IMG/VR virus record: IMGVR_UViG_2526164651_000008
Coordinates: 1 to 22,753 of that record
Reading direction: 5' to 3' (one strand)
DNA: 22,753 bases
Origin: a virus
Lineage: Duplodnaviria; Heunggongvirae; Uroviricota; Caudoviricetes
Part shown: piece by piece, positions 15,354 through 22,070 of the stretch
Layout: each line of letters opens with the position of its first letter
Numbering within the stretch: the first letter of the stretch is position 1
Made by a program: the position numbers and the translations under genes
Notes under the pieces: generated by a model
What the model saw: only the letters and a program-made list of their open reading frames with translations
Told to the model about the DNA's origin: nothing
The model's database searches: none

Positions 15354-15664
15354 TCAGGACTTTTCCGGCGTCAGCGCCTCATGATCATCATCCCCGGCAT
15401 TCTCAATGGTCCCCATACCGCTCAGCGACAGAACCCTCTCCGCCCCCGTGCCCAGCGCATCATACGACCATGTTGTCATAATGGATGCGCAAAGCGTCTC
15501 AACATCCTGAGACTGCTCAGCATTCCACAGTGAGCGGGAAACCAGCCAGGCATTGATATCCATTCCCATACGCAGAAAAGCAATCTGTCGTTCAGCCTCC
15601 GGCAGTTCTCCCTCCTGTGCATCAAACTTTGCCGTTCGCTGCTGAACAAACGTCAGATATTCAA
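15354..15664 (-). pseudogene. G: Tail assembly chaperone G, 5'-truncated by IS600
   Basis: The ORF on the minus strand abuts the IS600 end at 15665; its apparent ATG (15680) lies inside the IS terminal repeat. Position immediately upstream of T/H identifies it as G. Confidence 0.6.
15360..15366 (-). other. Candidate G-T -1 programmed frameshift heptamer GGAAAAG (variant of lambda GGGAAAG)
   Basis: In the G frame the sequence reads CCG GAA AAG TCC TGA; the -1 frame is open from upstream through the T ORF. The heptamer differs from the lambda slippery site by one base. Confidence 0.35.
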
Positions 15665-15707
15665 TGAGGTGTACTGGCAATAGCGGACACTACCATTTGT
15701 TCTTTTT

Positions 15708-16526
15708 TTAAGCAGCCATCTGATGATATTTTTCCCTGAAGGCTGCCGGGGAGATATTCCCCAGACGAGAGTGACGACGCTGACGATTGTAGAAAATCTC
15801 AATGTATTCCCGTATTACTGAGATGGCTTCATCCCGGTTATTAAAACGATAGTGGCTCAGGCTCTCATTTTTCAGCGTTCCCCAGAAGCTTTCCATCGGA
15901 GCGTTGTCGTAACAGTTACCTTTACGCGACATTGATGTTTTCAGACCAAACTGCTCCTGTATGACCCGGTAATCGTATGCGCAGTACTGTGAACCTCGAT
16001 CAGAGTGGTGGATTAGCCCGGCAGGTGGGCGCTGGCTCCTGAGCGCCATAAACAGGGCTTTACCTGTCAGCTCTTTTGTCATGCGCTCTCCCATGGCGTA
16101 GCCGACAATTTCACACGTATAAACATCTTTGATGCCAGCGAGGTACAACCATCCCTCCTGTGTGGCAACATACGTCAGGTCCGCCACCCAGACCTGATTT
16201 GGTGCTGTAGGAGCGAACGTCTGGTTCAGCAGATTTGGCGCAACTGGCAGATTGTGGTTCGGGTTCGTAGTCGCTCTGAACTTGCGTTTCTGCTTACAGC
16301 GTAGCCTTAGCTCCTTACGAAGACGTGCCAGTCGGTCACGACCAACGATGATGCCATTCTCTGCCAGCTCCGTCTGGAGCCGCCGGGTTCCATATGTTTC
16401 GCGAGTGCGGATATGTGCCACCTTAATCTCCAGTTTTAGCCGCTCATCATTTTGTTTTCTGTCTGAGGGTTCATGCTGTACCCAGTTGTAATAACCGCTC
16501 CTGGATACACCAAATACCTGACACAT
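15708..16526 (-). CDS. IS600 OrfB transposase (DDE integrase domain)
   Basis: 272-aa ORF with an IS3-family catalytic core (...[14 protein letters not shown]...NAPMESFWGTLKNE...). Confidence 0.85.
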   Translation of the reverse strand: MCQVFGVSRSGYYNWVQHEPSDRKQNDERLKLEIKVAHIRTRETYGTRRLQTELAENGIIVGRDRLARLRKELRLRCKQKRKFRATTNPNHNLPVAPNLLNQTFAPTAPNQVWVADLTYVATQEGWLYLAGIKDVYTCEIVGYAMGERMTKELTGKALFMALRSQRPPAGLIHHSDRGSQYCAYDYRVIQEQFGLKTSMSRKGNCYDNAPMESFWGTLKNESLSHYRFNNRDEAISVIREYIEIFYNRQRRHSRLGNISPAAFREKYHQMAA

Positions 16527-16561
16527 CGCTTCAATGGGAAATTGTTGTCGCCATTGTTCGA

Positions 16562-16864
16562 TTAACGCGTATTTTTCAGCGACTCCTGTGCAAAATACGC
16601 TGTTGCTTTTTTTAATATATCTCGCTCAAGGCGAGCTTCATTTAACGCCTTACGCAGTTGCAGAATTTCAGATTCCAGTTCAGCCACCGTGCGGGAACCA
16701 GGAGTACCGAGCCCTTTTCTGGCGGCGGTAACCCATTGTCCTAAAGTGCCTTCAGGAAGGGATAATCGGGAAGCGCCTTCACTGATCGAAAGTTGATTTT
16801 CAAGAACCGTTCTGACAGCTTCGGCTTTGAACTCTTTAGAGTAACGTTGGGTTTTTCTGCTCAT
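16562..16864 (-). CDS. IS600 OrfA (helix-turn-helix and leucine zipper)
   Basis: 100-aa ORF MSRKTQRYSKEFKAEAVRTVLENQLSISEGASRLSLPEGTLGQWV...; it ends shortly after the A7G frameshift window that leads into orfB. Confidence 0.85.
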   Translation of the reverse strand: MSRKTQRYSKEFKAEAVRTVLENQLSISEGASRLSLPEGTLGQWVTAARKGLGTPGSRTVAELESEILQLRKALNEARLERDILKKATAYFAQESLKNTR

Positions 16865-16928
16865 TATTAGCTCCTTCTGATGCCATTCTATTTCAGGAAG
16901 GAGTGTCCGTTAAACTCAGGCTACCTCA

Positions 16929-17067
16929 ATATGGTACCCGCGCTTCGGGAACTGATGCAGGCGAAGCATCGCGCACAGAAAGCAGTAGATGAGCTGGTGG
17001 ACTGTGTGGCAGAGCTGGAAACCAGAGTCGGAAAGTTTGAAAAACTGGTGCAGGAGGTGCTGCGCTG
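16929..17067 (+). pseudogene. 3' fragment of a phage nin-region gene truncated by IS600
   Basis: Open frame ...VPALRELMQAKHRAQKAVDELVDCVAELETRVGKFEKLVQEVLR* begins at the IS600 boundary. Its stop overlaps the rusA ATG (TGATG). Confidence 0.45.
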
Positions 17068-17427
17068 ATGCGCCATGAGTTTATTTTACCTTATCCGCCG
17101 ACGGTGAATACTTACTGGCGACGTCGTGGCAGCACATATTTTGTATCAAAAGCCGGTGAGCGTTATCGTCGGGATGTGGCGCTTATTGTCCGTCAGCAGT
17201 GACTGAAATTAAGCCTGTCCGGAAGACTGGCGATAAAGATTATTGCAGAGCCACCGGATAAGCGGCGTCGTGACCTGGACAATATCCTGAAAGCACCACT
17301 GGATGCACTGACACATGCGGGGTTGCTTATCGACGACGAGCAGTTTGATGAAACCAATATTGTGCGCGGACTGCCTGTTCCTGGTGGTCGGTTGGGGATA
17401 AAAATCACAGAGCTGGAGTGTGCATGA
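17067..17427 (+). pseudogene. rusA: RusA-like Holliday junction resolvase with a +1 frameshift and an in-frame TGA
   Basis: MRHEFILPYPP, then an extra A at about 17100 shifts the frame; the shifted frame reads TVNTYWRRRGSTYFVSKAGERYRRDVALIVRQQ, then TGA (17200-17202), then LKLSLSGRLAIKIIAEPPDKRRRDLDNILKAPLDALTHAGLLIDDEQFDETNIVRGLPVPGGRLGIKITELECA. The DKRRRDLDN and GGRL segments are RusA-like. Confidence 0.7.
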
Positions 17428-20494: not shown

Positions 20495-20509
20495 TCTGTC
20501 TCCCTTGTA

Positions 20510-20690
20510 TATGGGTTAACCAGATAACCACGGGGAGCAGGTACCGGCATCCACGTTACAGACGGTCCCGGCAAAAGTGCCTGACCTGACCCCTATTAGC
20601 GGTTACCAGCGCCCCTCCAGACCCGGTGACATCACCCCCCGGATCATGGACGACTGGGGGCAGTAATCATGCCGGGTCTGGCTGGCTAAC
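20510..20690 (-). ncRNA. Candidate IS110-type bridge RNA in the 5' non-coding region of the element
   Basis: About 180 nt of GC-rich, structured non-coding sequence between the TATAAT and the recombinase RBS, where IS110-group elements encode their bridge RNA. Predicted from position only. Confidence 0.35.
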
Positions 20691-20756
20691 ACCCCATTAT
20701 AAGGGGTACGAATAAAGTAACGGCGGGCTCCCGTTTTTATTCGGACAGGAACAGAT

Positions 20757-21158
20757 ATGGCAAAGAAAGACGATAACCTGAAACGTCTGAGAGAACTGGC
20801 AGCATCGCTGGGACGTGAGCCGGATATCTCGGGAAGCGCAGCAGATATTGCGCAGCGTGTGGCTGAGCTGGAGGAGGAACTTGCCAATATGGATGACACT
20901 GACATCCGGGATAAGTCTGCCCACCCGGAAAATGCGCTGACCGGATATGAAAATGAGGTGATATCAGCGCAGCCGGAGACCGTGATTCAGAATATGGATG
21001 ATCTGGTTACAGTCGTGGCACTGGTGACGCTGCATACCGATGCACTTCATGCCACGCGGGATGAACCTCTGGCATTTGTGCCGCCGGGAATGGCGTTCCG
21101 TGTCTCTGCCGGTGTGGCAGCCGGAATGACAGAACGTGGCCTGGCCAGAATGCAATAA
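20757..21158 (+). CDS. FI: DNA packaging / head completion protein FI
   Basis: 133-aa ORF; the C-terminal half ...ENALTGYENEVISAQPETVIQNMDDLVTVVALVTLHTDALHATRDEPLAFVPPGMAFRVSAGVAAGMTERGLARMQ matches lambda gpFI as I recall it. Confidence 0.8.
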   Translation: MAKKDDNLKRLRELAASLGREPDISGSAADIAQRVAELEEELANMDDTDIRDKSAHPENALTGYENEVISAQPETVIQNMDDLVTVVALVTLHTDALHATRDEPLAFVPPGMAFRVSAGVAAGMTERGLARMQ

Positions 21159-21169
21159 CGGGAGGCAGC

Positions 21170-21541
21170 GTGGCTGATTTCGATAATCTGTTTGATGTTG
21201 CACTTGATCTCGCAGACAAGGCCATTATTCGCAATATGGGGATTAGAGCGGTCATTACGTCAGGCCGGCTAAAAGGGATCATGATTTCCGGGGTTTTTGA
21301 TGATCCTGAAAATATTTCTCTGGTGGCCGGCGGTGTGCGTATTGAAGACTCTTTACCATCCCTGTTTGTGAAAACAGCAGATATTTTACGGCTGTGTCGC
21401 AATGATTCGCTGATGATTGGTCGTGAGTCTTTCTGTGTGGATCGTATCACCCCTGATGATGGCGGATGTAGTTATATCCGGTTGCGGCGTGAGGGGCTGC
21501 CGGGAAACGTAAGGGCAGGACGATATTATGAAGGGGCTTGA
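21170..21541 (+). CDS. FII: Head-tail joining protein FII
   Basis: 123-aa ORF starting MADFDNLFD... with ...GVFDDPENIS...SLPSLFV...PDDGG..., matching lambda gpFII. Confidence 0.8.
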   Translation: MADFDNLFDVALDLADKAIIRNMGIRAVITSGRLKGIMISGVFDDPENISLVAGGVRIEDSLPSLFVKTADILRLCRNDSLMIGRESFCVDRITPDDGGCSYIRLRREGLPGNVRAGRYYEGA

Positions 21542-21733
21542 GAATGCCATCCGCAATCTGAACAGCCTTGATACCCGTATGGTGCCACAGGCCAGCGCAT
21601 GGGCGATAAACCGTGTGGCACAGAAAGCGGTCTCGGTTGCCACCCGGCAGGTTGCCGGGAATACCGTTGCGGGCGATAACCAGGTGAAAGGGATCCCCCT
21701 GAAACTGGTACGTCAGCGTGTCCGGGTGTTTAA
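21528..21733 (+). pseudogene. Z: Tail completion protein Z, 3'-truncated by IS600
   Basis: MKGLENAIRNLNSLDTRMVPQASAWAINRVAQKAV... resembles the lambda gpZ N-terminus. The frame runs into the IS600 terminal repeat at 21734; the last few residues and the stop are IS-derived. Confidence 0.7.
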
Positions 21734-22070
21734 TGAGGTGTACTGGCAATAGCGGACACTACCATTTGTTCTTTTTTCAAGCAGCCATCTGATGATATTT
21801 TTCCCTGAAGGCTGCCGGGGAGATATTCCCCAGACGAGAGTGACGACGCTGACGATTGTAGAAAATCTCAATGTATTCCCGTATTACTGAGATGGCTTCA
21901 TCCCGGTTATTAAAACGATAGTGGCTCAGGCTCTCATTTTTCAGCGTTCCCCAGAAGCTTTCCATCGGAGCGTTGTCGTAACAGTTACCTTTACGCGACA
22001 TTGATGTTTTCAGACCAAACTGCTCCTGTATGACCCGGTAATCGTATGCGCAGTACTGTGAACCTCGATC
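21734..22070 (-). mobile_element. IS600, partial copy (337 bp of the orfB end), interrupted by IS911
   Basis: Identical to the corresponding part of the IS600 copy at 15665-16928 (from TGAGGTGTACTGGCAATAGCGG through ...GTGAACCTCGATC) and in the same orientation. It contains the OrfB C-terminal 74 codons (21777-22001, minus strand). Confidence 0.85.

Follow-up and report, generated by a model that had tools for sequence, protein, structure and literature searches.

How does a lambda-like prophage come to hold its tail genes on one strand and its head-completion genes on the other, with a copy of the insertion sequence (IS) IS600 at the truncated end of each? The question is raised by a 22,753-nt stretch of viral DNA (IMG/VR record IMGVR_UViG_2526164651_000008, positions 1 to 22,753; hereafter the window), which is the last 22.7 kb of AFGY01000037.1, from the draft genome of Shigella flexneri K-227, at 100% identity. 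It also matches the closed chromosome CP026803.1 of S. flexneri 89-141 at 99.94-99.96% identity; K-227 and 89-141 (serotype Y) are both S. flexneri strains (PMC6397287, PMC9455713). Comparison with related loci indicates that the window is very probably the remnant of an ipaH-carrying lambdoid prophage in yecE of S. flexneri, decayed in stages, with older deletions followed by a lineage-specific inversion and loss.

The layout of the window was established from the list of open reading frames (ORFs), a repeat search and direct reading. Genes were identified with Pfam, transfer RNAs (tRNAs) with ARAGORN and other RNAs with Rfam. The features on either side of the two breaks are the following, with IRR and IRL denoting the right and left inverted-repeat ends of an IS:

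3498-15345, minus strand: lambda-like tail module with tfa (DUF4376), stf, lom, J (split), I, K, L, M (short), H (fragmented) and T (Pfam)
15354-15664, minus strand: G', a tail assembly chaperone gene without its first ~76 nt (Pfam PF06894)
15665-16928, minus strand: IS600 copy a, complete, 1264 bp, IRR end at 15665 and IRL end at 16928
20757-21158, plus strand: FI (Pfam)
21170-21541, plus strand: FII (Pfam)
21528-21733, plus strand: Z', the first 206 of 591 nt of Z (Pfam Minor_tail_Z, positions 1-59 of 190)
21734-22070, minus strand: IS600 copy b', reduced to the 337 bp at the IRR end, in the same orientation as copy a
22071-22753, plus strand: IS911, IRL end, 683 bp within the window and running off it

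Coordinates and Pfam assignments agree with the initial annotation in placing the tail module on the minus strand and FI-FII-Z' on the plus strand. T was confirmed by Pfam, and G' aligns to positions 26-121 of 126 of Phage_TAC_2 (PF06894), about 25 N-terminal codons being gone. The ends of G' (15664/15665) and Z' (21733/21734) are each flush with the IRR of an IS600 copy, and the junction sequences read exactly as had been claimed. At Z' the joint reads ...GTGTTTAA/TGAGG..., while copy b' is itself cut at 22070/22071, precisely at the IS911 terminus.

The complete copy a is flanked by ...ATATTCAA/TGAGG at its IRR and CCTCA/ATATGG at its IRL. We thus read the same non-matching 3-bp flanks (CAA and ATA) that had been reported before, and copy a does not have the 3-bp target duplication of IS600. 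The missing duplication shows that copy a has undergone a past rearrangement, and casts no doubt on its identity as IS600. The copy is 99.4% identical to a RefSeq-annotated IS600, and identical IS600 copies are labelled 'IS600 family transposase, programmed frameshift' in RefSeq. It has the orfA/orfB organization, with HTH_Tnp_1 in a 100-aa ORF and HTH_21, rve and rve_3 in a 272-aa ORF. Imperfect terminal inverted repeats (TGAGGT...GGACAC) were found as well, one end reading TGAGGTGTACTGGCAATAGCGGACAC and the reverse complement of the other TGAGGTAGCCTGAGTTTAACGGACAC.

The closed chromosome CP026803.1 contains the G'-IS600-nin as well as the Z'-IS600'-IS911 joint, and both are spanned by contigs of the independent draft K-272 (L023, L005). 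In many sequencing runs, short-read contigs terminate precisely at the two joints. Misassembly of the region from G' to IS911, a concern raised with the initial annotation, is excluded, and the layout is common to three assemblies (K-227, K-272 and 89-141). Two chimeric gene calls cross the joints, namely G' read from a TTG start within IS600 (15357-15680, minus strand, 108 aa) and Z' running six codons into IS600 (21528-21752, plus strand, 74 aa). They are annotation artefacts, yet handy exact-match markers of the joints. The G'-IS600 fusion ORF occurs in only 34 index blocks and the Z'-IS600 fusion ORF in only 15 contigs; by contrast, a 45-aa ORF of the nin region occurs in 951 index blocks and FII in 2,903. 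The rarity of both fusion ORFs fits a lineage-specific event.

Between copy a and FI, the plus strand carries late-regulatory and tRNA genes, followed by a further IS and a deletion scar:

16929-18113, plus strand: late-regulatory fragment, from the same prophage as the tail module
16931-17068, plus strand: truncated nin-region ORF, 45 aa
17068-17427, plus strand: rusA, with a TGA at 17200 in K-227 only
17424-18113, plus strand: Q (Pfam)
18290-18600, plus strand: four phage tRNA genes, CAU (Ile/Met), Arg-UCU, Thr-UGU and Gly-UCC (ARAGORN, Rfam)
19273-20721, minus strand: ISEc20 (IS110 family), 1449 bp (Pfam DEDD_Tnp_IS110 and Transposase_20; RefSeq label)
20722-20728: deletion scar, six target nucleotides (GGCGGG) fused to the terminator downstream of E

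To place this arrangement, sister loci were located by the occurrences of the FII protein of the window and of the 45-aa nin ORF. At least ten other Shigella genomes, many of them closed, hold the same DNA in normal collinear order at 99.5% identity (loci listed in support: L031, L033, L035, L037, L038 and L040-L049; L031 and L041 serve below as the collinear references, and L047 is closed 89-141). This order is torZ-cmoB-cmoA-yecN-yecE'-IS911-early genes-IS600-45aa-rusA-Q-(tRNAs)-ISEc20-FI-FII-Z(196 aa)-U-V-G-T-H...J. Positions 15665-21733 of the window form one block of 6,069 bp that matches L031 4496-10564 at 99.47% identity, while positions 13448-15665 (H, T and G') match L031 14449-12231 on the opposite strand at 99.7%. 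The same inverted-block relation was seen between closed L047 and L041. Relative to yecN, the block from IS600-nin to Z' is flipped and the tail module is not; the latter keeps its ancestral orientation. The breakpoints in Z and G correspond to L041 14804 and 16471/2. The ~1,667 bp lying between them in sister genomes, without counterpart in the window, hold U and V, along with two-thirds of Z (its 3' part) and the opening ~76 nt of G.

The polarity of the change is given by enteroinvasive Escherichia coli (EIEC) strain RMDEC332 (L020, with L051), which has a near-complete collinear prophage at the same yecE/yecD site (NZ_CM177021.1, ~2,822,000-2,871,500). Its order is yecN-yecE-int-xis...immunity...replication...Q...four tRNAs...lysis...terminase to E...FI-FII-Z-U-V-G-T-H...J-lom-stf-tfa-ipaHd-dinI-yecD. 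From this outgroup order, collinearity is ancestral and the K-227 layout therefore derived. The tail module is 97.8-99.6% identical to that of the EIEC prophage and FI-Z 95.5%, and the EIEC prophage has an identical set of four tRNAs. Furthermore, positions 16929-17072 equal 5898-6041 of the EIEC locus at 100% identity. The nin fragment beside copy a, described earlier as unrelated, thus belongs to the same prophage, and its joint with IS600 is ancestral. Concerning the first tRNA gene (18290-18366), ARAGORN calls it Met (CAU), while the identical EIEC gene is tRNA-Ile in RefSeq, implying a lysidine-modified CAU.

The IS600/ATATGG joint recurs base for base in all collinear Shigella loci with extracted junctions, where the IRR flank is TTG. 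The nin-proximal IS600 (copy c) thus already had unmatched flanks (TTG and ATA). Relative to the EIEC prophage, copy c marks a 10.5-kb loss of the immunity/replication region. The IS600 present in the EIEC prophage was considered as the same insertion as copy c and rejected, being 273 bp away, in the opposite orientation and flanked by an ATG direct repeat of its own.

Comparison of the loci thus separates two layers of change. The older events appear in all Shigella copies examined: the ISEc20 insertion, a 10.18-kb deletion from the holin gene to E, and IS600c with its 10.5-kb loss. Specific to K-227, K-272 and 89-141, the comparison shows an inversion in place of the 6,069-bp block, with loss of 1.67 kb and of the early region. 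IS600-mediated deletion or inversion, as opposed to simple insertion, had been proposed from the window alone. The sister loci bear it out, with the block inverted, 1.67 kb missing and the joints flush with IS600 termini.

The older layer accounts for the missing head and lysis genes, which had been thought lost at IS600 ends. They are indeed absent from the window, but their loss maps to the older deletion beside ISEc20. The ends of ISEc20 were set from three copies (window 19273-20728, L053 15508-16970 and L001 7561-9010) and an empty yecD target. Comparison of the occupied yecD site with the empty one in the EIEC locus shows insertion without target duplication, as expected for the IS110 family, into a CGGGGG..GGGGG(C)ATCA-like target cut as CGGGGG(A)G^GGGGG(C)ATCA. 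In the prophage, ISEc20 occupies a site-specific target 8 nt upstream of the holin ATG, and the 10.18-kb deletion runs from 2 nt before this ATG to 21 nt past the E stop (L020 ~9820-20001). The scar is common to the collinear Shigella loci and predates the inversion. We rejected ISEc20 as the maker of a flush adjacent deletion, six native target nucleotides separating the IS end from the deletion joint. Because the deletion starts 6 nt outside the IS end, ISEc20 was probably not its maker. The O145 copy of ISEc20 resembles a simple site-specific insertion.

What remains is far from a functional phage. No U, V, head or lysis gene lies within the window. The Z''-U-V-G'' segment gave no BLAST hit in ~59 kb around the 89-141 locus (the rest of the genome was not searched), and the early region of 3.3 kb was likewise not found in these ~59 kb. 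The prophage is without terminase, portal, protease, decoration, capsid, lysis, immunity and replication (O/P-type) genes and without int, and its H, M and J are broken. With the genes from S to E absent and FI-Z' inverted, it does not have the makeup of an intact lambda-like prophage. The gene content predicts that it cannot make particles, in line with the initial annotation, now with the replication and integrase genes and the broken H, M and J added to the list of defects. The element is read as a fixed, non-inducible remnant that retains ipaH and four tRNA genes. In closed 89-141, H is split into 323 and 620 aa and J into 930 and 228 aa; other Shigella have 1013 and 1159 aa. H has also lost 60 bp in frame between 20-bp direct repeats (window 13448-13467) relative to the collinear Shigella and EIEC copies.

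How the lineage-specific layer arose is constrained by the ends of the IS copies. Homologous recombination within an IS never alters which terminus a flank touches. The three lineage joints (G' with IRR, Z' with IRR, and IS600' with IS911) would each stem from transposition, because each is flush with an IS terminus. A single recombination between inverted IS600 copies was rejected, since it leaves the copies inverted with the inner end on IRL, whereas here they are direct and both genes meet an IRR. One inversion-type transposition, a Tn10-style inside-end inversion-deletion and re-insertion of a composite transposon were also rejected on paper. Single-event models fail because the copies are direct, G' and Z' both abut IRR, and the IS600-nin joint is ancestral.

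We propose a series of steps that would yield the observed joints. An IS600 would have entered G in the orientation opposite to IS600c, and homologous recombination between the two copies would have flipped the intervening DNA; alternatively, IS600c could have reached the identical product by transposing into G intramolecularly, in an inversion-type event. Written from left to right, this product would read G'/IRR-IS600-IRL/nin...Z-U-V-G''/IRL-IS600-IRR/early genes. A further IS600 would then have inserted in Z, giving the Z'-IRR joint, and IS911 would have inserted into this Z-borne IS600. Finally, a single IS911-associated deletion or recombination would have taken out what was left of that IS600, together with Z''-U-V-G'', the reciprocal IS600 copy and the early genes. 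A single deletion can account for all the missing pieces because they are contiguous after the inversion, which we count in favour of the model.

Several observations weigh against this staged inversion and loss. No intermediate genome was recovered, and the order and number of steps are inferred. As the IS600 copies are direct repeats with G' and Z' both on IRR, at least three IS600 end-joining events are needed. IS911 has an orientation and a flank (the serine recombinase gene remnant) unlike those of the collinear strains, in which 162 bp adjoin IS911. Furthermore, the sole marker that could tell recombination from transposition, a T-run near IRR, is a homopolymer confounded with phylogeny. 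It is T7 in copy a and in unrelated IS600s and T6 in 15 of 15 collinear loci scanned, and it is contradicted by K-272, which has T6, and by L045, which has T7 despite keeping 10 nt of the ancestral flank.

Explanations of another kind fare poorly against the joints and the sister loci. Draft contigs mis-joined across IS600 repeats might produce such an arrangement, and K-227 is a draft with seven homopolymer indels relative to the closed genome and a left end possibly chimeric across a 2.8-kb repeat; the recurrence of the same joints in CP026803.1 and in K-272 contigs, together with short-read contigs that end exactly there, leaves an assembly artefact highly improbable. Just as improbable is that two unrelated prophage fragments, the tail module and nin-Q-FI-FII-Z', came to lie side by side. 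When set against the EIEC prophage, the Q-rusA segment proves mosaic, with only 144 bp of the nin region matching, but the blocks are contiguous and collinear at 98.7-99.7% identity in at least ten other Shigella chromosomes. A programmed, reversible inversion by a neighbouring serine recombinase (Pin/Hin-like) is brought to mind by a gene for a small serine recombinase, which in 89-141 lies ~1.3 kb outside the window. This gene, however, is 3'-truncated by IS911, and the block is bounded by IS600 termini that lie in direct orientation. The window yielded no inverted repeats, 1.67 kb are missing at the joint, and a single orientation occurs in every assembly of the lineage. The locus lacks the characteristics of the Hin/Gin/Pin systems, and we give such a switch next to no credence.

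Closer to the proposed series is a route in which the same product was made by the IS600 transposase, IS600c undergoing an inversion-type intramolecular transposition into G that duplicated it and flipped the intervening DNA in one step, without homologous recombination. The predicted product (G'/IRR-IS600-IRL/nin, with a reciprocal copy beside the early genes) matches the observed joints exactly, and these are flush with IS ends. On the other side, T7 in IS600a against T6 in IS600c fits a recombinant copy better, weak as this marker is, and IS3-family elements normally move via a circular copy-out intermediate that gives simple insertions. We consider this one-step route possible but rather unlikely.

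Breaks at the nin-proximal IS600 recur in other S. flexneri lineages as well (L033 3061-4324; L039 4892-6154; L045 8735). L033 has an additional IS600 171 bp upstream. In L039 the IS600 is in the opposite orientation, and a deletion has removed the 45-aa nin ORF as well as the 5' end of rusA. L045 is joined to a different prophage via an IS3-family transposase gene; the 10 nt (GATGGCGTTG) that this joint has in common with the ancestral flank suggest a junction formed at microhomology.

Beyond the right end of the window, the closed genome gives the full IS911 (1249 bp, 99.0% identical to a RefSeq-annotated IS911, with terminal TGAAGTGG present). It is followed in 89-141 by the 3'-truncated serine recombinase gene, cut by IS911 (region L047 16319-18760), then by IS2, a phage-borne yecE 5' half, and yecE'-yecN-cmoA-cmoB-torZ. 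The phage-borne yecE 5' half is divergent (83-88% identical) and differs from the int-linked version in L049, a strain that retains the integrase; this suggests that a second yecE-targeting element formerly occupied the locus. Further events on the attL side are indicated because the orientation and flank of IS911 differ from those in collinear strains and the yecE 5' surrogate differs from that of L049.

The left end of the window carries the ipaH cargo:

1-249, plus strand: dinI-like gene (ORF)
between the dinI-like and methyltransferase genes: tfa fragment, with a match to Rfam family IS009 within it at 408-611, minus strand
691-1359, plus strand: methyltransferase gene (ORF)
1368-1547, minus strand: CssrB small RNA (sRNA; Rfam, 230 bits), immediately upstream of ipaH
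1675-3318, plus strand: ipaH, a type III secretion system E3 ligase of 547 aa (Pfam LRR_TTSS and NEL)

Positions 1-2370, from dinI to the ipaH N-terminus, match a second ipaH island of 89-141 near yehU/metG (L052), whereas the sequence from 5160 onward matches the yecE locus. Positions 2371-5159 form a repeat of ~2.8 kb, with 99.9-100% identity between the two loci. In 89-141, the yecE locus has a 583-aa ipaH followed by dinI and then yecD::ISEc20. A chimeric left end of the K-227 draft contig, joined across this ~2.8-kb repeat, is thus possible. A look-up with the 222-aa methyltransferase gave no left flank, its ~14,000 blocks lying in unrelated DLP12/Rac-type contexts. Elsewhere, K-227 differs from closed 89-141 by one substitution, the TGA in rusA (17200), and seven single-base homopolymer indels (3999, 12978, 18194, 19238, 20733, 22145 and 22393). 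Because the two differ by such indels, the frameshifts in H (12978), DUF4376/tfa (3999) and IS911 orfA (22145) are probably sequencing errors of the draft.

Taken together, the case is one of ordinary Shigella genome decay, IS-driven inversion and prophage decay being already well known. Its components (IS600, IS911, IS2, ISEc20 and a lambda-like ipaH prophage) are all known and routinely annotated. It raises no new mechanism or question. Inversions and deletions driven by ISs already rank as the chief source of structural change in Shigella genomes. The locus is of use as a worked example of how Shigella disarms a virulence-carrying prophage stepwise while keeping its ipaH, sRNA and tRNA cargo. 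The G'-IS600 and Z'-IS600 joints are clean markers of the K-227/K-272/89-141 clade, and the fusion ORFs that span them are a warning to annotators, for they get called as genes. One could further imagine that fixation of the inversion was not neutral, broken collinearity blocking rescue or mobilization by superinfecting lambdoid phages and so locking in the ipaH and tRNA cargo. That this IS600 has also served as a breakpoint in three or more further S. flexneri lineages can be cited in this connection; we regard the idea as quite doubtful.

Among known systems, the nearest are the IS-mediated inversions of Shigella. A reconstruction of 114 inversions placed 103 on Shigella branches, on which such events were reported to be far more frequent (Seferbekova et al. 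2021, PMC8072062), and 42 inversions of ~700 bp to 400 kb, all IS-associated, were described in S. dysenteriae type 1 (Svab et al. 2021, PMC7819885). Breakpoints lie exactly at IS copies in those studies (PMC8072062, PMC7819885) as they do here. The inversion in the window differs in being small (6 kb) and confined to one prophage remnant, and in having direct IS copies that call for more than one event; no description of this particular variant was found in the literature searched. The Stx prophage of S. dysenteriae type 1 (PMC7819885) is likewise a fixed, non-inducible lambdoid remnant, bounded and interrupted by IS600 and other ISs, that has kept its virulence cargo. It has IS600 beside stx, whereas the window has ipaH and four tRNAs, no stx, a yecE site and an inverted part. 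With phage lambda the remnant shares homologues of FI, FII, Z, G, T, H, M, L, K, I, J, lom and stf (Pfam). Compared with the lambda order, it is broken between Z and G, has no U or V, and carries FI-FII-Z' on the strand opposite G'-J.

Finally, the EIEC RMDEC332 prophage shares the integration site, the four tRNAs, the position of ipaH and the dinI end. It differs in keeping int, xis, immunity, replication, lysis and head genes as well as U and V, in being collinear and in having a different Q module. Its ipaHd encodes 583 aa, against 547 aa for the ipaH in the possibly chimeric left end of the window, and its only IS600 is a simple insertion flanked by an ATG direct repeat, at a distance of 273 bp from where IS600 sits in Shigella. 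Apparently near-complete from int to ipaHd-dinI, with this single insertion, the EIEC yecE prophage is a candidate ipaH-converting phage that may still be mobile; it would also explain how this ipaH gene arrived in the chromosome.

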